DNA of 64,000 bases. It comes from Candidatus Nomurabacteria bacterium (GTDB taxonomy: Bacteria; Patescibacteriota; Minisyncoccia; Phycocordibacterales; UBA918). The stretch spans positions 88,095 to 152,094 of the forward strand of contig JACKGG010000002.1 in NCBI GenBank assembly GCA_020632035.1, written 5' to 3'. Each line of letters opens with the position of its first letter. The first letter of the stretch is position 1. A program made the position numbers and the translations under genes. Below are positions 1,312 to 56,257 of the stretch, one piece after another. A model generated the notes under the pieces. That model was not told where the DNA came from, did no database searches, and saw only the letters and a program-made list of their open reading frames with translations.

Positions 1312-1751
1312 GACCGATTAGCTCAGCTGGTAGCGGTGAATAAGTCCCCCAGACTAATTCACCATCTCCATTGTAGAGGTCTACTTTGGCAAAATAGTGT
1401 AGAATACCAGACAATCAAACCGACCGATTAGCTCAGCTGGTAGCGGTGAATAAGTCCCCCAGACTAATTCACCATCTCCATTGTAGAGGTCTACTTTGGC
1501 AAAATAGTGTAGAATACCAGACAATCAAACCGACCGATTAGCTCAGCTGGTAGCGGTGAATAAGTCCCCCAGACTAATTCACCATCTCCATTGTAGAGGT
1601 CTACTTTGGCAAAATAGTGTAGAATACCAGACAATCAAACCGACCGATTAGCTCAGCTGGTAGCGGTGAATAAGTCCCCCAGACTAATTCACCATCTCCA
1701 TTGTAGAGGTCTACTTTGGCAAAATAGTGTAGAATACCAGACAATCAAACC
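1312..1751 (+). repeat. four perfect tandem copies of a 110-bp unit made of tRNA-Val fragments
   Basis: Units start at 1312, 1422, 1532 and 1642 and are identical. Each is GACCGATTAGCTCAGCTGGTAG (tRNA-Val nt 1-22) + a 37-nt insert CGGTGAATAAGTCCCCCAGACTAATTCACCATCTCCA (inverted repeat GGTGAAT/ATTCACC) + TTGTAGAGGTC (anticodon-stem 3' half and variable loop) + 40 nt of non-tRNA sequence. Confidence 0.9.
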
Positions 1752-1824
1752 GACCGATTAGCTCAGCTGGTAGAGCGCTACATTGACATTGTAGAGGTCA
1801 CAAGTTCAAGTCTTGTATCGGTCA
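1752..1824 (+). tRNA. tRNA-Val (anticodon GAC)
   Basis: Cloverleaf GACCGAT/ATCGGTC acceptor, D-arm GCTC-AGCTGGTA-GAGC, anticodon arm CTACA-TTGACAT-TGTAG, T-arm ACAAG-TTCAAGT-CTTGT, discriminator A. CCA is not encoded. Confidence 0.85.
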
Positions 1825-1847
1825 CATTGCTTTTATTAAGAATTATC

Positions 1848-1907
1848 AGCTGGTAGCGGTGAATAAGTCCCCCAGACTAATTCACCATCTCCATTGTAGA
1901 GGTCACA
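1848..1907 (+). repeat. fifth, partial copy of the tRNA-Val-derived unit, immediately upstream of the DHH gene start
   Basis: AGCTGGTAG + the same 37-nt insert + TTGTAGAGGTCACA. Its GAGG lies 8 nt upstream of the ATG at 1912. Confidence 0.7.
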
Positions 1908-1911
1908 AATT

Positions 1912-2766
1912 ATGGAGAATCTAAAAGATATTGTTGTTATATATCACGCTCAGTGTCGCGACGGTTTCGGCTCTGCTTATGCTGCCTGGAAAAAGTTTGG
2001 TGACAATGCCTCTTACCTACCCCGCAAAAACCAAGCCGAACTACCAGCTGGTCTAGAGAACAAGGAAATATACATACTAGATTATAGTTTTTGCAAAGAA
2101 ATTCTGGAACAGCTTATAAGCAAGAACAAATCTGTCCTAGTAATCGATCATCATAAAAGCTCTGAAGAATCTGTGACGAGTTTCCCTGATAATATTTTTG
2201 ATTTGGAACATTCTGGGGCAGTCTTGTCTTGGAAATACTTTCACCCTGAGTCGCCTGTTCCTCCCCTACTCGAATACATAGAAGATCATGATCTCTGGAA
2301 TATGAAGCTCCCTCACAACCGTGAATACAATGCAGCCTTAAGAGAATATGACTCAACTTTTGAAGTCTGGGACGAGTTGGTAGAAAAACTAAAAGACGCA
2401 GATTTTTTACAAGCACACCTAAACACAGGACGTACTATTGCCCGGTTTGAAGATAAGTTAGTTGAAGATCTACTTCAGTATAAAGAGCGCGTACTGTTTG
2501 AAGGCTACGAAATATGGGCGATGAACGTCTCTAGAACATACCGCTCAATTCTAGGTAGCCATCTTGCCGAAATTAACGAAAAGGACGGTGGTGCACCCTT
2601 AGGTATCGTGTACTATCGTAATTTAGGAAAAGTTCACGTTTCCCTCAGAAGCAAAGGTGAGGTTGACGTAGGTGAAATTGCTAAAAAATACGGAGGTGGT
2701 GGGCACAAACACGCAGCTAGCATTCTGGTTGATTCATTTGCTGATCTCCCATTTACTTTTATATAA
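1912..2766 (+). CDS. DHH-family phosphoesterase (NrnA-like nanoRNase/pAp phosphatase)
   Basis: DHH motif (VIDHHKSSEE) and a DHHA1-type GGGGH motif near the C-terminus. Confidence 0.6.
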   Translation: MENLKDIVVIYHAQCRDGFGSAYAAWKKFGDNASYLPRKNQAELPAGLENKEIYILDYSFCKEILEQLISKNKSVLVIDHHKSSEESVTSFPDNIFDLEHSGAVLSWKYFHPESPVPPLLEYIEDHDLWNMKLPHNREYNAALREYDSTFEVWDELVEKLKDADFLQAHLNTGRTIARFEDKLVEDLLQYKERVLFEGYEIWAMNVSRTYRSILGSHLAEINEKDGGAPLGIVYYRNLGKVHVSLRSKGEVDVGEIAKKYGGGGHKHAASILVDSFADLPFTFI

Positions 2767-2844
2767 AAACAAAGACATAAACAAAGTTAGGCTTCTTAGA
2801 TTGACTGTCCATAGGACCTTTAATTATTACCTAGCCTTCTTTGT

Positions 2845-4083
2845 TTGCAACATTTCCTACGGTACCACACTTTTGCACTCTGGCAATATCTTCTGTATAG
2901 TAGCGCAATGATTATTTTATCGATCGAGACTTCATGCGACGAGACCGCCCTTACCTTCCTCAAGGCAGAGGGGGAATTTCCTCATGCTACCTATGAGATC
3001 TTGGGTGATGCGCTCTGGTCACAGATTGATGTCCACGCCGAATACGGTGGTGTTTTCCCTGCGCTTGCTAAACGTGAGCACGCCCGAACGATTGTACCCA
3101 TGCTTGAAAAAGCTCTCGAAGAAGCAGACGTAGAAACCGAAGAACCAGATGACGAAATTGATACCAATCTTGAAAATAAAATTCGCACCCTTCTAGACCG
3201 CGAACCCGGACTAGCTGATCTACTCTTGGATTTTCATAAGAAAAATGGAGTTCCAGAAATTAACCTGATTGCGGTAACCAACGGCCCTGGGCTCGAGCCA
3301 GCTCTTTGGGTCGGGGTAAATTTTGCTAAAGCGATCGGTCTGCTCTGGAACACATCTGTGGTTGGAATAAATCACATGGAGGGCCACATTCTGGCTAGTG
3401 TATACGATGCTGATCGTGACAATCAACTTTCCGATATTACCTTCCCTTCCATATCACTCTTAATCTCTGGCGGTCACACCGAACTGATTTTAATGAAAGA
3501 TTGGAGTAATTATGAAAAAGTGGGACAGACAAGAGACGATGCCGTAGGTGAAGCGTACGATAAAGTAGCTCGGCTAATTGGAGTCCCCTATCCGGGAGGA
3601 CCAGAAGTCGCCAGACTGGCAGGAGAAGCTAGAAAAAGAAATCTACCCGAGTTTGCCAGCCTTCCCTCTCCTATGCTGCACTCAAAAGACCTAGACTTTT
3701 CTTTCTCTGGCCTGAAGACCGCAGTCCGCTATGCAGTAGAGGGGAAAATTTTATCTGATGATGATAGATCTGCCATCGCTAGAGATTTTGAAAATGCCGT
3801 TACGGCTGTGTTGATAAAAAAGACAGTGTCTGCCATTGAAGAATACGGAGCTAAAACTTTAATCGTTGGCGGTGGGGTCAGTGCCAACACCCACATGAAG
3901 CGTATGATGGAAACGGCTCTTCTTGCTGAGTATCCTGAAGTAACTGTCTACTTCCCCCAGCCCGGACTCTCGACCGACAACAGCATAATGATCGGCTTAG
4001 CTGGGCACGCTCGAGCTAGTAGTGCACTACTCCCCACTGGGACAGATGTAATTCGGGCTGACGGAAATCGCTCTTTAGCTTAG
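2845..4083 (+). CDS. tsaD: tRNA N6-adenosine threonylcarbamoyltransferase TsaD (Kae1/TsaD family). The likely true start is the internal Met near 2908.
   Basis: ILSIETSCDETA N-terminus, GINHMEGH metal-binding motif and a GGGVSAN C-terminal motif. It carries an acidic ~50-aa insertion relative to typical TsaD. Confidence 0.8.
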   Translation: MQHFLRYHTFALWQYLLYSSAMIILSIETSCDETALTFLKAEGEFPHATYEILGDALWSQIDVHAEYGGVFPALAKREHARTIVPMLEKALEEADVETEEPDDEIDTNLENKIRTLLDREPGLADLLLDFHKKNGVPEINLIAVTNGPGLEPALWVGVNFAKAIGLLWNTSVVGINHMEGHILASVYDADRDNQLSDITFPSISLLISGGHTELILMKDWSNYEKVGQTRDDAVGEAYDKVARLIGVPYPGGPEVARLAGEARKRNLPEFASLPSPMLHSKDLDFSFSGLKTAVRYAVEGKILSDDDRSAIARDFENAVTAVLIKKTVSAIEEYGAKTLIVGGGVSANTHMKRMMETALLAEYPEVTVYFPQPGLSTDNSIMIGLAGHARASSALLPTGTDVIRADGNRSLA

Positions 4084-4136: not shown

Positions 4137-6359
4137 ATGGAGGAAAAACAACAACCAAACATACCGGAGATTTTCTTGTCTCCATACAATCCAGTTAATC
4201 ACGAAAACTCACTGTACAAGATGTGGGAAGACTCTGGTTACTTTAATCCAGACAAATGTGTCGAAGATGGTATAGCTGATAGAGATGCTGAGACTTTTTC
4301 AATTGTCCTACCACCTCCTAATGTGACCGGCATCCTCCACATGGGCCACGCCGCTATGCTCGCGGTTGAAGATATTCTAGTTAGATACAATCGAATGCAA
4401 GGTAAGCGCACTCTCTGGATCCCAGGGACAGACTCAGCTGCTATTGCTACTCAATCAAAAGTTGAAAAGCTTGTCTCAAAAGAAGAAAAGAAAAGTCGGC
4501 ATGATTTAGGCCGAGAAGAATTCCTGAAGCGAGTGGATGTTTTTGTTGAAGATAGTAAGGCTACTATTGTGAATCAAATAAAAAAGATGGGTTCTAGTCT
4601 TGATTGGTCACGTTACGCTTTTACTTTAGATGACCAGCGCTACAAAGCTGTAATGACTGCCTTTGTAAATATGTACAACGACCAGCTCATCTACCGGGCC
4701 GACCGCATCGTAAACTGGGACCCAAAAGGCCAAACTACAATATCTGATGACGAAATAGTCCATGAGGAACGCCAAGGTAAGCTTTATACTTTTAAATACA
4801 ACAAGGAGTTTCCTATTACCATCGCTACTACCAGACCAGAAACCAAAGTTGGAGACACAGCGGTAGCGGTAAACCCAGACGATAAACGCTACCAAAAATA
4901 CATTGGGCAGACTTTTGATTTTGTTTTTTGCGATGTGCCGGTGAGTGTTACTGTCGTGGCTGATACGGAAGTTGATCCTGAGTTCGGTACTGGCGCGGTC
5001 GGCGTCACCCCTGCCCATAGTAAAATCGACTGGGATATAGCCGACCGATCTAATATCATCCGCCGGCCCCAAGTGATAAACGAATACGCCAAAATGACCG
5101 TGGCCGGACGACTCAATAACTTGAAGGTTGAAGCGGCTCGAGCGGAGGTGGTTAAGTGGCTTGAAGAAGAAGGCCTTTTAGAAAAAATCGAAGACACTAT
5201 TCAAAACATAGCAACGGCCGAGCGAACTGGAGGAATCGTTGAACCACTGCCCAAACTTCAGTGGTGGATTGATGTCAATAAGAAATTCACCCTCAAGCAC
5301 TCAGAAATAACCGGCATAGAAAGTGGTAGTGAAGTAACTTTGAAAGAACTGATGATCAAAGCTGTTGAAAACGGCGATACTGATATTTTTCCTGAACGCT
5401 TCAAGCGAGTATATTTTAACTGGATTGAAAATTTGAATGACTGGTGTATTTCACGCCAAATTTGGTACGGACACCGCATCCCAGCCTGGTACAAAGATGG
5501 TGAGACTAAAGTACAAATACAATCTCCAGGCGCTGATTGGGAGCAAGAATCCGATACTCTAGACACTTGGTTCTCATCTGGACTGTGGACTTTCTCTACC
5601 CTGGGTTGGCCAGAACAAACAGACGACCTAAAAACCTACCACCCAACTACAGTACTAGAAACCGGTTATGATATTATTTTCTTCTGGGTAGCTCGAATGA
5701 TTTTGATGAGTACTTACCACCTCGGACAAGTACCGTTTAAAAATGTATACTTGCACGGACTAGTCCGTGATGAAAAAGGGAAGAAAATGAGTAAATCAAT
5801 TGGCAACGTCATTGATCCACTCAACATGATTGAAAAGTTCGGTGCCGATGCAACTCGCCTGTCGCTGATAGTCGGAGCTGCTCCGGGTAATGACGTACCT
5901 CTTTCCGAAGACAAAATCCGCGCCTACAAAAAGTTTGCTAACAAGGTTTGGAATATTAGTCGATTTATCCTGACCAGCATCGATGATGCTGACTGGAGAC
6001 AAACTCCAGAACTAACCAAGAGAGATAACGAAATATTAACTGACCTTAGAAAAAACATTCTAGAAGTCACAGAAGATATTGAAAGGTTCAGTCTTTATCT
6101 TGGCGCAGAAAAAGCTTACCACTACGTTTGGCACGAGTTAGCTGATAAAGTTCTCGAGGAATCCAAAGACATTCTTAACGGGGACAATATGTCAGAAAAA
6201 TACGCAAGGCAATACGTACTAAAAGAATGTCTAGTTGCTTCACTTAAGACCCTCCACCCTTTCATGCCATTTGTCACAGAAACAATCTGGCAAGAGCTTC
6301 CAAAAGAATTGAAAGACCATGACATTCTTATGGTTGCAAAGTGGCCGATTGGTGAATAG
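4137..6359 (+). CDS. valS: valyl-tRNA synthetase (short form without the C-terminal coiled-coil)
   Basis: HIGH-type motif PPPNVTGILHMGHA and KMSKS motif (KMSKSIGNV); class I editing aaRS architecture; 740 aa. Confidence 0.9.
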   Translation: MEEKQQPNIPEIFLSPYNPVNHENSLYKMWEDSGYFNPDKCVEDGIADRDAETFSIVLPPPNVTGILHMGHAAMLAVEDILVRYNRMQGKRTLWIPGTDSAAIATQSKVEKLVSKEEKKSRHDLGREEFLKRVDVFVEDSKATIVNQIKKMGSSLDWSRYAFTLDDQRYKAVMTAFVNMYNDQLIYRADRIVNWDPKGQTTISDDEIVHEERQGKLYTFKYNKEFPITIATTRPETKVGDTAVAVNPDDKRYQKYIGQTFDFVFCDVPVSVTVVADTEVDPEFGTGAVGVTPAHSKIDWDIADRSNIIRRPQVINEYAKMTVAGRLNNLKVEAARAEVVKWLEEEGLLEKIEDTIQNIATAERTGGIVEPLPKLQWWIDVNKKFTLKHSEITGIESGSEVTLKELMIKAVENGDTDIFPERFKRVYFNWIENLNDWCISRQIWYGHRIPAWYKDGETKVQIQSPGADWEQESDTLDTWFSSGLWTFSTLGWPEQTDDLKTYHPTTVLETGYDIIFFWVARMILMSTYHLGQVPFKNVYLHGLVRDEKGKKMSKSIGNVIDPLNMIEKFGADATRLSLIVGAAPGNDVPLSEDKIRAYKKFANKVWNISRFILTSIDDADWRQTPELTKRDNEILTDLRKNILEVTEDIERFSLYLGAEKAYHYVWHELADKVLEESKDILNGDNMSEKYARQYVLKECLVASLKTLHPFMPFVTETIWQELPKELKDHDILMVAKWPIGE

Positions 6360-7916: not shown

Positions 7917-8193
7917 TGTAAGATACCTCTGACTAACTAATTTGTGATATACACGATATATGGGTTATAAAAAAAATACCCACTCCTGTTTCAACTACTG
8001 CTGGTTGTATGCGTGTACCCCACGCTGGACTATGGTGACAACCCCCGAAAAAGAACAATATTCTGCCTTTTATCATTAGGGTACGTCTACCAAATATGTC
8101 ATAACACTGTAAATCTTGGTATTTAAACATTTACGCCACCACTATGATTAAACGATCTGTATTACAGCATAAAGTATTATTCCGTTCAAGCCA

Positions 8194-8210
8194 GGAGCAG
8201 GCTCGGTCAC
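8194..8210. repeat. direct partial copy of the tRNA-Phe 3' segment (12 nt, GGAGCAGGCTCG) fused to GTCAC
   Basis: Matches the tRNA-Phe gene (antisense) at 8388-8399. The match stops inside the T-loop. It sits ~175 bp from the tRNA 3' end. Confidence 0.6.
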
Positions 8211-8312
8211 TCTCACGGCTATTTTCTTCGTAAACTCATAATATAGCTCGTTCCATTGACCTCCACTCGTCGCGTTCCTCGGCTCCGCCAGCGGACTTTA
8301 TCGCGACTCGGC

Positions 8313-8380
8313 TTCGAGCCTGCTTCCAAGCTACAAACGAAAACAGCCTATATGCGGAGCATATAGGCTGTACGTTTGTG
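8313..8380. repeat. inverted 19-nt copy of the tRNA-Phe 3' end (TTCGAGCCTGCTtCCAAGC) followed by a 48-nt perfect palindrome abutting the tRNA 3' end
   Basis: 8313-8331 reads in tRNA sense on the plus strand, opposite to the gene. The palindrome is TACAAACGAAAACAGCCTATATGC-GGAG-CATATAGGCTGTACGTTTGTG. Confidence 0.65.
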
Positions 8381-8877: not shown

Positions 8878-8930
8878 GCCCCTTTAGTTAAATGGATATA
8901 ACCGCTCACTCAGAGCGGGCATTGTAGGCT
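8878..8930 (+). repeat. pseudo-tRNA: a copy of the 5' two-thirds of tRNA-Arg (acceptor, D-arm, anticodon arm with an altered loop, start of T-stem), followed by a 27-nt hairpin
   Basis: GCCCCTTTAGTTAAATGGATATAACCGCTCAC is identical to 9062-9093, then diverges. It lacks a T-arm and 3' acceptor. The hairpin CTGAAAAAG..CTTTTTCAG is at 8931-8957. Confidence 0.7.
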
Positions 8931-9061
8931 GAAAAAGACTGGGAGACTTTTTCAGAAGGTTAACTAGCATTTTATGACGTAAGGAAATAAAATGGTGATA
9001 ACCTATACTGATCTCGTAGAGATAGATTCCGTTGGAATCGAACCTATTGGTTACAATTGAA

Positions 9062-9136
9062 TACTTAAGCCCCTTTAGTTAAATGGATATAACCGCTCAC
9101 TCCTAACGAGCAGTTGTAGGTTCGATTCCTGCAGGG
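9062..9136 (+). tRNA. tRNA-Arg (anticodon CCT)
   Basis: GCCCCTT-TA-GTTA-AATGGATA-TAAC-C-GCTCA-CTCCTAA-CGAGC-AGTT-GTAGG-TTCGATT-CCTGC-AGGGGGC-A. There is one A·C mismatch at the base of the anticodon stem. Confidence 0.75.
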
Positions 9137-9340
9137 GGCACTAAAACACAACTCAACGGTCTTTGCGTTTTTCTTGTGTACCACAATCGTTTTGGTGCGC
9201 ACATCGTTCATGTACCCCTCGGGTGCTTGGCCGGGAAACATGCCAAGGCGCACTTTTTGGCGTAATCCTTGCTTGGTGTTCTCGGAAAGAGAATCGACAT
9301 AATATTTACTTTGTCCGAAAGCCATGCTCAACATGAACTT
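9137..9340 (-). pseudogene. remnant of a large serine recombinase (end of the catalytic domain through the start of the recombinase domain), truncated at the tRNA-Arg 3' end
   Basis: ..YYVDSLSENTKQGLRQKVRLGMFPGQAPEGY.. resembles the E-helix plus the G-x-x-P-x-GY start of the large-serine-recombinase 'recombinase' domain. The catalytic N-terminus and the C-terminal ~350 aa are missing. The open frame runs on into the tRNA. Confidence 0.4.
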
Positions 9341-11855: not shown

Positions 11856-14135
11856 TCACCTAGCTTGTTGGTATAGTTGACGCACTTCATCAGCCGATAA
11901 TTCTCTATCGTACATGCGAGCATCGTCGATTTTTCCATTCATAAACTTGTCCGGGGTACCGGCCGCAGCCCCTATTTTCAATACCGTAGAAGAATTATTA
12001 ATTTCATTAGCGCAACTCCCACTCGAATTACCCGAAGGCTCACCATCTATATAAAAAGTGGCACCATTAGTAGTAGACCAGGTTACTACCGTATGATGCC
12101 ACTCAAAAGCGGAAACTACTCCCGTAGAAGGTACATTGCAACCAGAACCACTATTAGTCTGTAAGTGAATTTTATTATTAGAATCGATAAAAATTTGATA
12201 GGTAGTAAAACTCTTTCCAAATGTTGCATAACTTCCGGAATTTGCCGTATCTAAGTACACCCAAGCAGACGTAGTCATGGCTCCATCAACATTAATATTG
12301 CCAACATCTACATAGTCATCTATTCCATCAAACTTAATAGCTTGGCCGATTTTACCGATAGCAGTGGTGTTGGTATGACCTATCCAATTACCTGTATTAG
12401 TACCACTCGAATCCGATACCTCACCGGTACTATTAGACAAATCCATATCTGAACCATCAAAAGTCCAGTGTCCGACTAGTCCAGTAGCTAAAGAACCGCT
12501 AGGTAAAGTTGTGGCGATTTTAGTTGGCACACCTTGTTGATAAAGATGTTGAACTTCAATATCTGAAAGTACACGATTGTATATTCTCATATCATCTAAG
12601 GTACCGTTAAACCTTTGACTAGCACCGGCATTGAAGGCTCCAATCAAAACATTTCCATCTTCTCCTGGATCAGGAAATCTAGTTCGATCCAGTGATGCAG
12701 TCCCCACCCTTACCCCATCCAGATAAAAAGTAGCGGTACTGTTGGTACTATCAATAACCGTATTCGTGACACAGGTGTGGTACCAACGATTTATCTGAAT
12801 ATTTAGATCTCCAAGCAGTGCGTCTGTGTATAAGTAAGCATTACCACCCCTAAATCTTAAAGTTTCGACTCCCCAGGCAGCACTAATAGAAAAGATGGAT
12901 TGAGTACCACCAATATACATCATTGAAAATATAGAGTAATCTTCCGCTGACGTAGCAGACAGAACATCTGTATTGAACCATGAACAAAGCGTACCCTCGG
13001 AATCATTTGTCATCACATCTAAAATATCCGCATCCTGTCCAAGACTAATGTAATCATTTACCCCATCGAAATCTATTGCCTGACCCACCTTACCAATAAC
13101 TGTACTTTTGGAATGATTAACCCAGTTGCCAATGTTCGAATTACCACTTTTGTCTAGAATCTCCCCTGACGCATTAGCTAAGTCCATATCCTGCCCATCA
13201 AACGTATAATGACCAAGGAGGCCGTCTGATAAAGAACCAGCTGAGTGGGTCGTGGCTATTCCCACCCCTTCACCTAACTGATATAGCCTAGCGGCTTCCT
13301 CCGAAGAAAGAACCCTATCATACACTCGTACATCGTCTATCTTTCCATCAAATGCTCTGACGGTGTTCCCAAACCCTATACTCCAGATATCTGTAGAAAA
13401 GACTACCATATCTCCCACTCCGGCTGTTTGAGTACTATAGTTTAATTCAGTACCATTTAGGTAAAGACGGATTACTTTATCTCCTGAATCATCATAGGTC
13501 ATTAAAACATGTTGCCATTCGTTAAGTGTTATTGATTCATTAGCTGCATTTGTAGATGAATGACTAGTATCATTTTGCACATAGGCTCTAAGTGATTGTT
13601 GACCCCCTTCATTATAAAGCCTAAATTGAACATGAATATTACTACAACGAGGACTAGCATTACTACAAATCGACATAATATGACCACCGTTACCCACTCC
13701 CCAGCCAGTAGGATATATCCATGCACTATAAGTAAAAGCGGATAGGTTATCGAGCTCGGTAGGACTCCCTAAATCAACCAAATCATCCACCCCATCAAAC
13801 GATAAAGCTTGGCCGATTTTACCAACAGTCACAGAGGGGGAAGATTCAGTAGAAGTACCAAGATTACCATCGTTATCACTCAGACTTCTATCACCAGTAA
13901 TAGAAGATGTGGTCACAGGTCCGTCAAACGTCCAGTGTCCAACTAGCCCATCGTCGAGTGTGAGTCCGCCGGTGTTGATGCGAAGAAGTCCGACTGTTGA
14001 TTGGTAGACACCGGCGGAGGCGGTGCCGAAGACACCGCCAAGAGGGGTCTGGGTCACCACTAGCACTAACAGCAAAATACCAAAAGTGACCTTAAAAACC
14101 TTGCTAGTAAATTTACTTGGTTCAAATTCTTCCAT
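11856..14135 (-). CDS. large secreted or surface protein with three LamG-like (concanavalin-A-like lectin/glucanase, Laminin_G_3) repeats
   Basis: N-terminal TM/signal. A ~230-aa module recurs three times (DGLVGHWTFDG .. GN[WI].GH[ST] .. IGK[IV]GQA[IL].FDG[VI]DDY ..[TL]S.W .. FY[IL]DG .. DD[VA]R[IVM]Y[DN]R.LS..E). 759 aa. Confidence 0.55.
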   Translation of the reverse strand: MEEFEPSKFTSKVFKVTFGILLLVLVVTQTPLGGVFGTASAGVYQSTVGLLRINTGGLTLDDGLVGHWTFDGPVTTSSITGDRSLSDNDGNLGTSTESSPSVTVGKIGQALSFDGVDDLVDLGSPTELDNLSAFTYSAWIYPTGWGVGNGGHIMSICSNASPRCSNIHVQFRLYNEGGQQSLRAYVQNDTSHSSTNAANESITLNEWQHVLMTYDDSGDKVIRLYLNGTELNYSTQTAGVGDMVVFSTDIWSIGFGNTVRAFDGKIDDVRVYDRVLSSEEAARLYQLGEGVGIATTHSAGSLSDGLLGHYTFDGQDMDLANASGEILDKSGNSNIGNWVNHSKSTVIGKVGQAIDFDGVNDYISLGQDADILDVMTNDSEGTLCSWFNTDVLSATSAEDYSIFSMMYIGGTQSIFSISAAWGVETLRFRGGNAYLYTDALLGDLNIQINRWYHTCVTNTVIDSTNSTATFYLDGVRVGTASLDRTRFPDPGEDGNVLIGAFNAGASQRFNGTLDDMRIYNRVLSDIEVQHLYQQGVPTKIATTLPSGSLATGLVGHWTFDGSDMDLSNSTGEVSDSSGTNTGNWIGHTNTTAIGKIGQAIKFDGIDDYVDVGNINVDGAMTTSAWVYLDTANSGSYATFGKSFTTYQIFIDSNNKIHLQTNSGSGCNVPSTGVVSAFEWHHTVVTWSTTNGATFYIDGEPSGNSSGSCANEINNSSTVLKIGAAAGTPDKFMNGKIDDARMYDRELSADEVRQLYQQAR

Positions 14136-28850: not shown

Positions 28851-29348
28851 TTAATCTAGATAACTATCAAAATACACTGCGTGGCAGGTGTAGCCACCTG
28901 GGTTCTTCTGGAGATAATCTTGGTGGAAATCTTCAGCTGGCCAAAATCTGGTGAGGGGTTCTAGAGTGGTCACAACCTCCCCGTCCCATCTCTCAGATTC
29001 ATTCACTATTTCTATCATTTCTTCAGCGATTTTTTTCTCCTCTTCGTTACTAAAAAATATTGCTGACCGATACGAAGTGCCTTTATCGTTCCCCTGTTGA
29101 TTAAGTGTAGTCGGATTGTGTATCTGAAAAAAGAAATCAAGTATGTGTCGGTAGTCGGTTAGTTCGTCATCATACTCTATCTCAACGGCTTCAGCGTGGC
29201 CTGGGTGATTTTCGTAGGTTGGATTGTCGTTTCTGCCTCCGGTGTAGCCGGCTTCGGTCGAGATAATGCCTGGTTGGGAGCGGATGAGGTCTTCGAGTCC
29301 CCAGAAGCATCCACCTGCTAGTACTGATTTTTTAATCATGAGTTGCAA
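28851..29348 (-). CDS. msrA: peptide methionine sulfoxide reductase MsrA
   Basis: GCFWG active-site motif near the N-terminus; typical length. Confidence 0.85.
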
Positions 29349-29818
29349 TTATAGATTTTCTTCTCTCTACGAGAGCTGTACACCTTGTCGCCATCTTACT
29401 TCGTAAACTCGTAAGATTGCTGGCAAGGTCTTGCGAAATGGGGCCCGTCCCATTTCTCACCCAGAAGCATCCACCTGCTAGTACTGATTTTTTAATCATG
29501 AGTTGCAATTATAGATTTTCTTCTCTCTACGAGAGCTGTACACCTTGTCGCCATCTTACTTCGTAAACTCGTAAGATTGCTGGCAAGGTCTTGCGAAATG
29601 GGGCCCGTCCCATTTCTCACCCAGAAGCATCCACCTGCTAGTACTGATTTTTTAATCATGAGTTGCAATTATAGATTTTCTTCTCTCTACGAGAGCTGTA
29701 CACCTTGTCGCCATCTTACTTCGTAAACTCGTAAGATTGCTGGCAAGGTCTTGCGAAATGGGGCCCGTCCCATTTCTCACCCAGAAGCATCCACCTGCTA
29801 GTACTGATTTTTTAATCA
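29300..29818. repeat. three perfect 160-bp tandem units plus a 38-bp partial unit. Each contains the msrA start region and a ~106-nt hairpin-rich element.
   Basis: Units begin at 29301, 29461 and 29621, with a partial at 29781. Each unit is the msrA first 13 codons + 5' flank, followed by the element TCTCTACGAGAGCTGTACACCTTGTCGCCATCTTACTTCGTAAACTCGTAAGATTGCTGGCAAGGTCTTGCG + GAAATGGGGCCCGTCCCATTTC + TCAC. Confidence 0.9.
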
Positions 29819-38507: not shown

Positions 38508-38583
38508 CAGGGACTCGAACTTTTATAGGTTTCTATATATAGCTCAAATGAATTTTCTGCCGGACAGGGACTCGGTCACGAAT
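38508..38583. repeat. direct partial copies of the tRNA-Gln 3' segment (13 nt at 38508-20; 18 nt at 38557-74), the second fused to GTCACGAAT
   Basis: CTGCCGGACAGGGACTCG is identical to 38735-38752 of the tRNA-Gln gene (antisense). The match ends in the T-loop. Confidence 0.65.
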
Positions 38584-38663
38584 AAATTTTCTACGAAAAT
38601 TTTTCTCGACCCCGACTCGCCGACAAGCCCTCCCTTCGGTCGTCTTGTATACCGGCTCCGTCT

Positions 38664-38718
38664 TTCGAGTCCCTGCGGTCAGGTAATTTAGTAAAACCCC
38701 AATGCATACGCATTGGGG
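38664..38718. repeat. inverted 12-nt copy of the tRNA-Gln T-arm (TTCGAGTCCCTG) plus a hairpin (CCCCAATGC-ATA-CGCATTGGGG) abutting the tRNA 3' end
   Basis: It reads in tRNA sense on the plus strand, whereas the gene is on the minus strand. Same layout as the Phe and CAT loci. Confidence 0.6.
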
Positions 38719-46677: not shown

Positions 46678-46877
46678 TATAACATCATATATTTATAATT
46701 ATAAACTGACCCCTACAGTTCTATAGCAGAGAAAAGGGCAGCTATAATAAAGAAAAGACTGAGTATAAAGCCAATTATTTTCTTATTGCAGAATGAGAAA
46801 GTCTAGGAGACTTATGAAGGCTTATTAAGGGTATTTTGAAGAATGAAAAATACCTAATGAGTGGACAGGTTCTGTAA

Positions 46878-46899
46878 GGACCGGAATCGAGTCACGAAT
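46878..46899. repeat. direct partial copy of the tRNA-CAT(47054..47124) T-arm (CCGGAATCGA) fused to GTCACGAAT
   Basis: Identical to 47063-47072 of the tRNA gene (antisense). The break falls in the T-loop. GTCACGAAT is the same 9-mer as at the tRNA-Gln locus. Confidence 0.55.
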
Positions 46900-47050: not shown

Positions 47051-47053
47051 TTG

Positions 47054-47124
47054 TTGCGGGGCCCGGAATCGAACCGGGGTCTGGAGGTTATGAGCCTCCC
47101 GAGGTACCTCTCCTCTACCCCGCT
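47054..47124 (-). tRNA. tRNA with a CAT anticodon and an A1·A72 mismatch (initiator-like acceptor end; could also be Ile2)
   Basis: The reverse complement gives AGCGGGG-TA-GAGG-AGAGGTA-CCTC-G-GGAGG-CTCATAA-CCTCC-AGAC-CCCGG-TTCGATT-CCGGG-CCCCGCA-A. Position 1 A does not pair with 72 A. Confidence 0.7.
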
Positions 47125-47310
47125 ATGTATTTAACTTTACTTTTTCTGCAACGTTGGAGCAATCTCTCCTCATCTCTACGAGATCTGTACACCTTGTCGC
47201 CATTTTATTTCGTAAACTCACAAAATTGCTGGCAAGGTCTTGCGGAAGCGTCCCACGCTTCCTCACCCCGCTATGTATTTAACTTTACTTTTTCTGCAAC
47301 GTTGGAGTAC
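47117..47310. repeat. the same ~106-nt element as in the 29.3-kb array, flanked by a 43-bp perfect direct repeat that includes the first 8 nt of the tRNA-CAT 5' end
   Basis: DR CCCCGCTATGTATTTAACTTTACTTTTTCTGCAACGTTGGAG at 47117-47159 and 47266-47308. The element at 47161-47265 has the same 5' core as the 29-kb copy, then a different hairpin, GGAAGCGTCCCACGCTTCC, and the same TCAC end. Confidence 0.85.
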
Positions 47311-55250: not shown

Positions 55251-55325
55251 CAGATAATTATACCTAATAATAGAGACAGAAAATCACCTTGCAAACAAAA
55301 AACGCCAGCAGACGCTTTTTACTTT

Positions 55326-55465
55326 GTCCCGAGGACCGAATTGTTATTTTTGTCCCGAGGTCGGTCCTCGGGACAAACAGACCTCGGGCAAAGTGGCATT
55401 AGAGAACATCAGGACAAAGCTTCATCCTATGCCCCGCTATCCCGAGGTCCGACCTCGGGATAGGT
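55326..55465. repeat. cluster of REP-type palindromes (GTCCCGAGGtcgGtCCTCGGGAC family) 3' of the RAYT gene
   Basis: Copies or half-copies at 55326-38, 55352-75, 55376-88 and 55438-65. Confidence 0.8.
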
Positions 55466-56130
55466 TTGCGCTTGAGTAGTCAAGCCAATGAGTGATCTGA
55501 TCATTGAAAGAATTTTCCTCCAGAAAGTATTGAGGAAAACTATCTTTAGAGAGAACATTAGACACAACTCTATTCACTCCCTGATAATCAAGGTAGCTTG
55601 AATATTTATATTCCTGCAAGTGTTTCAAAGCTTCATTTCTATTTTTAATACCAGTCTCTTTCCACTCTGGCTCAATTAATTTGATTGGATTTAGATGAAT
55701 GTACGAAAATAAATATTTTAGATATTCATCTGTATCAGCTCGCTTAGCTTTGTATCTACCTTCAAATAAGACACCTGTGCGATCATGTTTCTTATTAAAG
55801 TACATGGAGTATCCAGTTGAAAGTTTTTTCATAAACTGACTAATTCCTCCTTCGTTTACTTCTTTTATTAAAATATGAAAATGATTGGGCATTAATACGT
55901 AAGCACCAATGTCAACAAGGACCTTATTTCTATCAATTAAAAATAAATCGTCATATTTTTTACCTGCTTTATATTCATCCTTTATTGAAACAGGATTTGT
56001 ACTGTTGCATAAATACAGCAATGCCATAAAACGGTCATAGTCTGACTTTGTTTTGTATATTACCCTTTTCTCTGTACCTCGATTATAAATGTGGTAATAC
56101 TCATCGACAGCAATAGAGTTATCTTTCAAC
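55437..56130 (-). mobile_element. REP-associated tyrosine transposase (RAYT, IS200/IS605-like Y1 HuH transposase). The start is probably the internal Met (MLKDNS..), because the upstream part of the ORF reads through a REP palindrome.
   Basis: YHIYNRG, HuH motif MPNHFHILI, and a catalytic-Tyr region (RYKAKRADTDEYLKYLFSYIHLNP). REP palindromes flank it on both sides. Confidence 0.7.
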
Positions 56131-56149
56131 ATACAATTAATATACCACA

Positions 56150-56257
56150 CTGTCCCGAGGACCGACCTCGGGACAGATAAACATTTACTTACAAACAACA
56201 CAAAAAGTGGCCAGAAAGCGCTTTTTGATATTGTCCCGAGGTCGGACCTCGGGACAG
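56150..56257. repeat. two REP palindromes 5' of the RAYT gene
   Basis: CTGTCCCGAGGACCGACCTCGGGACAG (56150-77) and TTGTCCCGAGGTCGGACCTCGGGACAG (56231-57). Confidence 0.8.

Follow-up and report, generated by a model that had tools for sequence, protein, structure and literature searches.

Directly upstream of the tRNA-Val(GAC) gene in a 64,000-nt stretch of a 'Candidatus Nomurabacteria' genome (contig JACKGG010000002.1; the whole stretch is hereafter the window), four identical 110-bp units stand head to tail, each composed of two pieces of that tRNA gene, a hairpin and a short tail. Our analysis indicates that this array is probably a real but copy-number-unstable tandem amplification of an older junction between a tRNA fragment and a structured repeat, here called E. 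The event itself is of a known kind, repeat-mediated tandem amplification; the E family, in turn, is absent from Rfam 15, and its link to the duplication of gene starts was not found described. Loci and contigs compared with the window carry L numbers. The array and its surroundings comprise the following features:

1312-1421, plus strand: unit 1, consisting of tRNA-Val nt 1-22, a hairpin, ATCTCC, tRNA-Val nt 37-48 and a 40-nt tail
1422-1531, plus strand: unit 2, identical to unit 1
1532-1641, plus strand: unit 3, identical to unit 1
1642-1751, plus strand: unit 4, identical to unit 1
1335-1363, minus strand: the hairpin GGTGAA..TTCACC, repeating every 110 nt and again at 1858-1886, and matching the 5' module of E (GGUGAR and P1 with a UGGGR loop) (covariance model, homology to L013, fold)
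1386-1415, plus strand: promoter-like TTGGCA-18-GACAAT in the unit tail, one per unit (9/12 consensus match)
1752-1825, plus strand: intact tRNA-Val(GAC) (ARAGORN; Rfam 1752-1824 at 71 bits)
1846-1908, plus strand: pseudo-tRNA-Val piece on the 3' side of the tRNA, a 59-nt exact copy of the unit core plus ACAA, abutting the start of the DHH gene
1912-2766, plus strand: DHH/DHHA1 phosphoesterase gene (NrnA-like)

Tandem Repeats Finder reported 1312-1773 as a repeat of period 110 with 4.2 copies, 100% matches, no indels and a score of 924. The array thus consists of four full units (1312-1751) followed by 22 nt that form the 5' end of the intact tRNA-Val(GAC), and identity of 100% over 462 nt is far beyond chance. 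In unit 1, tRNA-Val nt 1-22 (1312-1333) are followed by a C and the 29-nt hairpin GGTGAATAAGTCCCCCAGACTAATTCACC (1334-1363; arm GGTGAATAAGTC, CCCCA, arm GACTAATTCACC), by ATCTCC (1364-1369), by ATTGTAGAGGTC, which corresponds to tRNA-Val nt 37-48 (1370-1381), and by the 40-nt tail (1382-1421). A preliminary description of this DNA, made from its letters alone, had counted a perfect array of 4.5 copies. The four identical units stand, whereas the extra copy is not contiguous with them, the 3' part of the tRNA and a 20-nt spacer lying between. This fifth copy comprises the central 59 nt of the unit (TCAGCTGGTAG...GAGGTC; 1846-1904), is 100% identical to the unit core and runs on into ACAA, which is tRNA-like (nt 49-52) and unlike the unit; the resulting pseudo-tRNA-Val piece ends 3 nt upstream of the DHH ATG (1912). 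The period-110 array is nested inside a period-193 repeat, for which several orders of events fit and none is compelling.

The properties of the array are those of a minisatellite, namely identical head-to-tail units, a partial unit at the end and a unit number that varies between otherwise identical genomes. The chimeric composition of the unit from tRNA-Val nt 1-22 and 37-48, as first described, was borne out, and its hairpin is real: the 48-nt core that contains it folds at -16.1 kcal/mol (z = -3.8), and the predicted fold of the unit is more stable than those of shuffled sequences (z = -2.9 to -3.8). Nor can the units make a tRNA, as had been proposed; ARAGORN and Rfam RF00005 called only 1752-1825 and neither the units nor the downstream copy, even at an expectation value of up to 5. 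No intrinsic terminator (GC-rich hairpin plus T run) was detected within 1150-2000. Open reading frames (ORFs) of 47 amino acids (aa) on the minus strand of the array were rejected as genes and regarded as artefacts of the repeat. The locus does not resemble a CRISPR or TIGR guide array either, as its units are identical, lack any variable segment and neighbour genes for a Bud32-like kinase and the DHH protein.

Perfect identity was found to go together with an unstable unit number, which agrees with the active copy-number change suggested previously. In independent assemblies of the same organism, contigs with an identical DHH protein and identical intergenic sequence differ only in the number of Val units, which is one in L002 (a k141 assembly), two in L003 (GCA_020428885.1), at least two in L001, where an N gap lies inside the array, and four in the window. 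Two Logan contigs begin inside the 59-nt repeat at the Val locus, and contigs L004, L005, L009 and L010 end within repeats. The window holds a second perfect array, at the start of msrA, whose unit number varies as well:

29300-29818, minus strand: array of the first 39 nt of msrA, E and a 25-nt tail with TATAAT; period 160, 3.2 copies (Tandem Repeats Finder)
within 29300-29818, minus strand: three E copies in the msrA inserts (covariance model R1, 91 bits each)

Here, the unit joins the first 39 nt of msrA to a 121-nt insert whose tail places TATAAT 8 nt 5' of the ATG, and the intact msrA continues below 29339. The leftmost partial copy, which starts 5 nt past the stop codon of the preceding gene, reads GTG at the position that is ATG in subsequent copies. 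ORFs of 55-58 aa running through the msrA units were discarded as repeat artefacts; the frame through E differs between the window and L099. One msrA unit was present in L006, L007 and L008, at least two in L009, which ends in the second unit, and three in the window. Val and msrA loci agreed within each sample, with single units in one and multiple units in another.

A unit number that differs between assemblies of the same sequence, at Val and msrA alike, would also be expected if one or two real units existed at each locus and the assembler had walked the repeat loop extra times; the N gap inside the array of L001 and the four contigs ending in repeats fit such an artefact too. We consider this explanation unlikely. 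Junctions between units are found in three or more independent assemblies, namely the window, L003 and L001/L009. Further, in L149, a related species whose MsrA is 87% identical, the msrA-E array has three units that differ by a few single-nucleotide polymorphisms (SNPs), the first of them with a nested second E, and loop-walking cannot produce such an array. At the tRNA-Met locus of L071, a counterpart of one described below, 1.7 copies were found, and the one-unit module is conserved across species.

A likely source of the hairpin in the amplified unit is the E family. Comparison of repeats within the window revealed a core common to the msrA inserts and to inserts at a tRNA-Met and a tRNA-Arg gene. 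The consensus of 73 aligned copies of E reads GGGUGAG-P1-GCAAGACCUU-P2/P3-AAGGUGUAC-N-G-P4, with a GUA loop in P4. The search pattern GCAAGACCTT-N28-48-AAGGTGTAC, run on GTDB species genomes, matched at least 119 stretches, and the matches listed are, by their record titles, nearly all from Patescibacteria (Paceibacteria, Kaiser-, Zambryski-, Taylor-, Nomura-, Campbell-, Lloydbacteria or 'Saccharibacteria'-labelled metagenome-assembled genomes, MAGs). About ten matches in unrelated bacteria lie in coding DNA, fail the covariance model and were not accepted as E. A viral origin was likewise rejected, as the 12 pattern matches among IMG/VR viral contigs all failed that model. In 688 kb of E-bearing loci, model R1 detected 109 copies, often two or three within 1 kb of tRNA clusters.

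Covariation in the family is strong. RNAalifold assigned 30 pairs to the alignment, 22 of them with double-sided changes. In the named structure, 94.2% of stem cells are paired (72.5% in shuffles), 442 cells carry double-sided changes (132 in shuffles), and the covariation score is 0.531 (0.150 in shuffles, of which 0/500 reached 0.531); with the partners slid by 1-3 columns, it fell to 0.06-0.13. As the search pattern itself fixed the invariant base of P2, the structural support comes from P1, P3 and P4. Counts of G-U and A-C in the stems (45 vs 30) do not decide between an RNA and a DNA structure.

Neither the Val unit nor E nor the composites described below matched any Rfam 15 family in the window or in 19 E loci, at gathering or permissive E-value thresholds; the matches obtained were confined to tRNAs, RNase P and chance long-hairpin 'miRNA' matches to tRNA-terminator palindromes. 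In the same sequences, no group I intron (RF00028) was matched at E <= 1-5, and the host tRNA is intact. Rfam gave no match to the known small self-cleaving ribozymes (hammerhead, twister, twister-sister, pistol, hatchet, HDV-like). The 73-copy alignment lacks terminal inverted repeats, so that E does not present itself as a miniature inverted-repeat transposable element or a derivative of an insertion sequence. Keyword and sequence-string searches of the literature found no description of E.

The hairpin of the Val unit had been described as lying in a segment that replaces the anticodon arm. It is not derived from the tRNA; judged by homology with the relative L013, it is most likely the 5' module of an antisense E copy, left as an internally deleted remnant. 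On the minus strand it aligns to the E 5' module (GGUGAA, a 6-bp P1, UGGGG loop, ..CA) with P2/P3 absent, and R1 scored unit 1 (1282-1364) at 19.8 bits (E = 0.008 window-wide) and the other units at 8.9 bits, compared to 91-99 bits for the msrA and Met inserts and 55.7 bits for the Arg insert. The assignment to E is made because L013, the closest relative found (DHH 72% identical), carries a full-length antisense E (60.8 bits) at the Val position between the same flanks, GCTGGTAGCGGT and CCTTTCCATTGTAGAGGTC, in the order GCTGGTAGCGGT ... CTCACC CTTTCC ATTGTAGAGGTC. On the 3' side of its tRNA-Val, L013 also bears a pseudo-tRNA-Val that holds, again between nt 22 and 37, a solo hairpin, GGTAAAAAGTCATCCCATGATTTTTTACC.

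A search in relatives, proposed at the outset, also found the unit conserved. The JGI contig L136 has a single unit consisting of tRNA nt 1-22, CGGTGAAACAGTCCCCCGGACTATTTCACC, ATCTCC, ATTGTAGAGGCC and an unrelated 24-nt tail, followed by tRNA-Val and a terminator. Its hairpin differs from that of the window by one stem pair changed on both sides (T-A to A-T), with the internal mismatch kept, and its tRNA-derived piece bears the substitution of its own tRNA (GAGGCC, vs GAGGTC in the window). Hairpin and ATCTCC are thus conserved and the tail differs. More distantly, in L011/L012 and L015/L016 (DHH 68-70% identical), tRNA-Val lies 2-3 nt from the DHH start codon and the unit is absent. As one-unit or full-E states exist in L136 and L013 and deeper relatives lack them, the Val module predates the species and is not an invention of the assembly. 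When metagenomes were scanned for the Val hairpin module, L136 was the one locus found, so that the conservation of the module refers to few lineages.

The basal state would have been [tRNA-Val nt 1-22][88-nt insert][tRNA-Val gene], the insert being an antisense deleted E remnant, tRNA-Val nt 36/37-48 and a 40-nt promoter-like flank that may set the transcription start at tRNA nt 1. Such a module could have arisen when E disrupted one tRNA-Val copy beside a retained live copy. Because the 22-nt direct repeats bracket the insert, whole 110-bp units can be gained or lost; unequal homologous recombination or replication slippage between these repeats would later have added and removed units, and once two units were present, 110 nt of homology would ease further change and keep the units identical. 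Both the recombination or slippage step and the promoter function of the tail are inferred. A simple tandem duplication of 'upstream region plus gene start' was rejected as the source of the basal state, because what lies to the left of the first copy is in no case a match to the insert end. Most likely, the array is a by-product, which multiplies a promoter and a decoy tRNA start and is not a designed battery of small RNAs.

The Val array is one of at least four loci of the same architecture in the window, which the preliminary description had not noticed. In these loci, a duplicated gene start is followed by a structured insert and then by the intact gene. Besides the Val and msrA arrays, the following relatives of this design and further E copies were found:

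47117-47307, minus strand: single-unit version at tRNA-Met, with 43-nt perfect direct repeats (47117-47159, 47265-47307) around E
47167-47268, minus strand: E copy in the tRNA-Met insert (R1, 99 bits)
8878-9068, plus strand: single-unit version at tRNA-Arg(CCT), in which a copy of tRNA nt 1-34, with degenerate similarity up to about nt 52, is followed by an E variant and a tail
8927-9028, plus strand: E variant in the tRNA-Arg insert (R1, 55.7 bits)
46791-46886, plus strand: further E copy (R1, 40.1 bits, E = 1.9e-7)
8188-8336, minus strand: degenerate composite past the tRNA-Phe terminator, with an inverted copy of the tRNA 3' end at one edge and a direct copy at the other
38555-38692, minus strand: similar composite after tRNA-Gln, with an 18-nt direct copy that ends at the discriminator base

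At tRNA-Met (47053-47124, minus strand), each 43-nt repeat consists of 35 nt of upstream flank and tRNA nt 1-8, and the insert is 105 nt long. The tRNA-Arg(CCT) gene lies at 9069-9141, its partial copy 191 nt upstream and the insert in between. Counterparts of these single-unit versions occur in L071 (Met) and in the Kaiserbacteria MAG L078 (Arg-TCT). At msrA, the empty site is preserved in L150, L151 and L152 (MsrA 86% identical), where the stop codon of the 92-aa upstream gene is followed by 7-10 nt and the msrA ATG, and L153 has an E with a decayed duplicate. The composites, seen at Phe and Gln in the window and in L067, L076, L078, L081 and L130, lie past the tRNA terminators and open with an inverted copy of the tRNA 3' end, which together with the tRNA end and the terminator forms a palindrome of about 100 nt. 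A structured body follows, often with E and ending in ..CGTGAC(C), and then a direct tRNA copy from the T loop to the discriminator.

Within each genome, the duplicated pieces match the live gene exactly: 22/22 and 12/12 for Val, in the window and L136 alike, 34/34 for Arg in the window and 46/46 in L078, 43/43 for Met in the window and 54/54 in L071, and 39/39 for msrA in the window and 35/35 in L099. From one genome to another, these pieces vary. Orthologues of the E copies at Arg, Met and msrA occur across genera, with tails in common and, at Arg, the same P2 variant. We infer that the identity between fragment and live tRNA is maintained by repeated expansion and contraction or by gene conversion, the process that would also make the perfect arrays.

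Several observations weigh against the proposed history of the Val array. In the k141 assembly of one sample each array has a single copy, and in another sample both have several, which may reflect assembler behaviour as well as strain differences; the unit counts at Val and msrA, the four Val units of the window included, are those of the assemblies. No other perfect array of at least three copies with a period of at least 40 was found in 882 kb of other E-bearing loci, most of which are short-read MAGs that would tend to collapse or break such arrays. The model scores that link the Val hairpin to E in the window are weak (19.8 and 8.9 bits), and the homology that supports the link comes from one relative (L013); since the hairpin is nearly palindromic, its orientation is uncertain from the window alone. 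The promoter call on the unit tail is only a 9/12 consensus match. Finally, the conservation of hairpin and ATCTCC, with the tail not conserved, hints at a function that a by-product would not explain.

Two other tandem repeats near E were noted. L077 contains a perfect 54-nt repeat of 2.1 copies (4845-4955), about 10 nt 3' of an E match (4734-4836), which is the sole other one of period at least 40 in the 882 kb. In L039 (minus strand, about 3500-3900), several short tandem copies of the tRNA D-arm-like motif GTAGTTGGTAGTGA lie directly 5' of two tandem E copies.

The 40 nt at the end of the Val unit had been called unrelated to the tRNA. Judged by its motifs, this tail looks like a tRNA promoter, in which TTGGCA-18-GACAAT ends 6 nt 5' of tRNA nt 1. 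The same description had the tRNA fragment act as the ribosome-binding region of the DHH gene. A partial copy is indeed present before the DHH ATG; the identical stretch ends 7 nt and its GAGG 9 nt upstream of the ATG, a distance given before as 8 nt. A role in ribosome binding now appears weakly founded. Shine-Dalgarno (SD)-like motifs at -18 to -4 occur in 4/37 Pfam-supported window genes (7/37 in a control region), and because they are rare in window genes, GAGG is unlikely to be a designed ribosome-binding site. In the predicted fold, GAGG is paired in a 5-bp mini-hairpin (AUCUC/GAGGU), and in relatives DHH starts 2-3 nt after the tRNA without an SD motif. Many of the 37 window genes have a TATAAT-like hexamer 7-10 nt 5' of the start codon, which, together with the rarity of SD motifs, suggests that the mRNAs of this genome are mostly leaderless. 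The short distance from the 3' end of tRNA-Val to the DHH start was observed at 9925-10003 in L011 and at 9924-10003 in L015; by analogy with mitochondrial tRNA punctuation, 3' processing of tRNA-Val in these relatives would leave an essentially leaderless DHH mRNA.

A promoter-like site in each unit, aimed at tRNA nt 1, raises the question of selected function. The units might be small structured RNAs transcribed from their own promoters, or promoters and decoys that tune tRNA-Val and DHH, with copy number as a dosage switch. The compensatory pair between species in an otherwise conserved hairpin plus ATCTCC, beside an unconserved tail, agrees with this, as do tRNA-derived flanks that track the live tRNA, folding above shuffles (z = -2.9 to -3.8) and the shared orientation of E and the neighbouring tRNA, which holds in 23 of 26 cases (23 vs 3) and favours a transcription-linked role for E. 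Against it, the unit has no terminator, relatives manage with one unit or none, and the same amplification at the unrelated msrA suggests a structural rather than a gene-specific cause. We therefore regard selection for such a function as doubtful and retain the by-product interpretation given above.

How E came to lie between duplicated gene starts was approached through its junctions. The base before UGAG is G in nearly all copies, giving a left junction ..RGG|UGAG. About 12 of the roughly 70 copies with usable flanks have a 17-70-nt direct repeat that ends exactly at ..RGG|UGAG and recurs 0-85 nt after P4, where it forms the intact gene start of tRNA-Asn, tRNA-Val (L114), tRNA-Met (L071), msrA (L099) or a glycoside hydrolase family 1 (GH1) gene (L020, L098); the flanking duplications, where present, are thus variable in length. 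Another 11 or so of the 70 lie 110-250 nt 3' of a same-strand tRNA, inside a composite. Relative to tRNA nt 1, the duplicates start as follows:

Val (window), Arg (window) and L107: 0
L078 Arg: -1
L044: -2
L114: -3

In 6-7 of 9 tRNA cases the duplicate thus starts 0-3 nt 5' of tRNA nt 1, and for msrA and GH1 it starts at or near the start codon. The duplicated pieces begin about where transcripts are predicted to start, which is the most suggestive clue to a mechanism.

Repeats that coincide with tRNA ends, with Val and Arg starting at nt 1 and Gln ending at the discriminator, and a layout of [repeat][insert][repeat] would be expected of integration scars, left by a small non-autonomous integrative element that carries a copy of the tRNA 5' end and accretes in tandem by repeated integration. 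The composites after tRNA genes, which span the T loop to the 3' end, cover a classic integrase target. This origin is very improbable in our view, as no integrase or recombinase turned up when 58 window ORFs were scanned with Pfam, the same E core lies at unrelated targets, including the protein starts of msrA and GH1, with different repeats, repeat length varies from 17 to 70 nt, and the covariance model found no E in the 12 pattern-matched IMG/VR contigs.

The invariant left junction and the hairpins near both ends of E would, on the other hand, suit an element that propagates itself, either as a single-stranded DNA (ssDNA) hairpin moved in trans by an HUH/Y1 transposase, similar to palindrome-associated transposable elements (PATE) or repetitive extragenic palindromic (REP) sequences, or as an RNA, possibly a small ribozyme, copied by a template-jumping reverse transcriptase (RT). 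The RT route, by run-off at RNA 5' ends, would explain duplications that begin at transcript starts; duplicates do begin 0-3 nt 5' of tRNA nt 1, or else at or near the start codon, and the mRNAs of this genome are apparently leaderless for the most part. Near-identical E bodies beside different tRNAs on one contig (L076 and L081) point the same way, as do a Y1 transposase resembling REP-associated tyrosine transposases (RAYT) together with REP palindromes in the window and another Y1 gene about 850 nt from the msrA-linked E in L153.

This possibility was given rather a slim chance. IS200/IS605-type insertion does not duplicate its target, the REP palindromes around the RAYT bear no relation to E, a RAYT homologue lies near only 2 of about 110 other E loci, and the window showed no RT. 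The E copies of one genome have diverged from each other with compensatory changes, and orthologues of the Arg, Met and msrA insertions are found across genera, which speaks for copies that are old and maintained rather than for recent bursts; the 45 vs 30 ratio of G-U to A-C singles out no RNA strand. A more specific and speculative version, which we also hold to be unlikely, makes E a new class of self-propagating structured element of Patescibacteria (a ribozyme-like RNA with a template-jumping RT, or an HUH-moved ssDNA hairpin) that would enter behind runs of G close to the 5' ends of highly expressed transcripts and rebuild the gene start from the transcript 5' end. The resulting promoter-bearing units would expand and contract as perfect arrays and might release unit-length RNAs.

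The Y1 gene of the window is a 254-aa ORF at 55437-56201 (minus strand) that matches Y1_Tnp / REP-associated tyrosine transposase and has the HUH motif NHFHIL. Five copies of the palindrome TGTCCCGAGGTCGGTCCTCGGGACA flank it (55316-56257), a REP-RAYT layout in a genome of the candidate phyla radiation (CPR). Homologues occur in only two of the other loci compared (L102, L118), and the Y1 gene of L153 is a different one. The remainder of the window is an ordinary 'Candidatus Nomurabacteria' chromosome, with genes for a Bud32-like kinase, DHH, TsaD, a class I aminoacyl-tRNA synthetase, LepA, MurJ, MgtE, CTP synthase, a release factor, a ligase and a type IV pilus cluster; Pfam scans of its 58 ORFs revealed neither an integrase nor an RT. 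The Bud32-like atypical kinase (311-1261; weak TIGR03724 and Pkinase matches) stands beside DHH and TsaD (1912-4083), the latter being the Kae1 homologue, which forms a KEOPS-like neighbourhood in a bacterium. At 11856-14135 (minus strand), a 759-aa protein with three Laminin_G_3 domains is encoded by DNA in which three internal repeats that have diverged recur about every 730 nt, as 61-nt blocks of 64-75% identity.

If the proposed reading is correct, tiny CPR genomes that are usually deemed streamlined would hold an abundant structured repeat family missing from Rfam 15, which remodels tRNA genes, and some protein genes, at their starts and ends and yields unstable perfect arrays. Such arrays would break or collapse short-read assemblies, and pseudo-tRNA pieces would confuse annotation. 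Duplicates that start near tRNA nt 1 or start codons in an apparently largely leaderless genome, combined with pieces that equal the live gene within genomes and differ between them, would offer a testable handle on transcription-linked duplication or concerted evolution in bacteria. Its small size (about 100 nt), three helices, invariant junction and very strong covariation would make E a good candidate for biochemistry (self-cleavage, protein binding, HUH nicking).

Among known systems, REP sequences and bacterial interspersed mosaic elements (BIME), BOX and Correia-type repeats are non-coding, multi-copy and modular, measure about 100 nt, have covarying hairpins and are sometimes arranged in tandem with strain-variable copy number, as in BIME-2 clusters and boxB modules. 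E resembles them in being short, multi-copy and non-coding with covarying hairpins, and a RAYT with its own REPs lies in the window. It differs in lacking terminal inverted repeats, in its three hairpins around an invariant junction and in the fixed left junction ..RGG|UGAG. Moreover, E lies mainly at tRNA genes, often with a 17-70-nt gene-start duplicate, is limited to Patescibacteria as sampled and has no Rfam family.

Integrase-borne elements at tRNA genes leave att duplications, and integrative and cis-mobilisable elements accrete there in tandem. The E inserts are similar in that a partial tRNA copy flanks the insert, the repeat edges fall at tRNA ends and the duplicate keeps the gene intact. 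They are unlike these elements in that duplicates of the 5' and the 3' end are equally common, in their size of about 90-150 nt without a recombinase, in their occurrence at protein-gene starts too and in the variable repeats. Borg elements of Methanoperedens carry perfect tandem repeats, often at gene starts, which are taken as a sign of rapid turnover. Like these, the Val array is perfect, comes from a metagenome-derived genome and has a partial repeat at its boundary; the organism, the content of the unit (a gene-start fragment plus a structured element) and the dispersed parent family set it apart.

Group I introns in Patescibacteria tRNA genes are structured insertions as well, and because of them tRNA genes or pieces go undetected or are called wrongly; fragments, duplications and tandem arrays are unmentioned in that work (PMC13011429). 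E is likewise structured, associated with tRNA genes and found in the same phylum, but it is about 100 nt long as opposed to 200 nt or more, matches no group I model and leaves a functional, uninterrupted tRNA beside the insert. TIGR units, finally, give rise to 36-nt RNAs with two variable spacers and adjoin a Nop-domain tas gene (PMC12045711). As in TIGR or CRISPR arrays, the Val locus has tandem structured units in CPR bacteria; in contrast to them, its units are 110 nt long, identical and free of spacers, and its neighbours are a kinase-like gene and the DHH gene.

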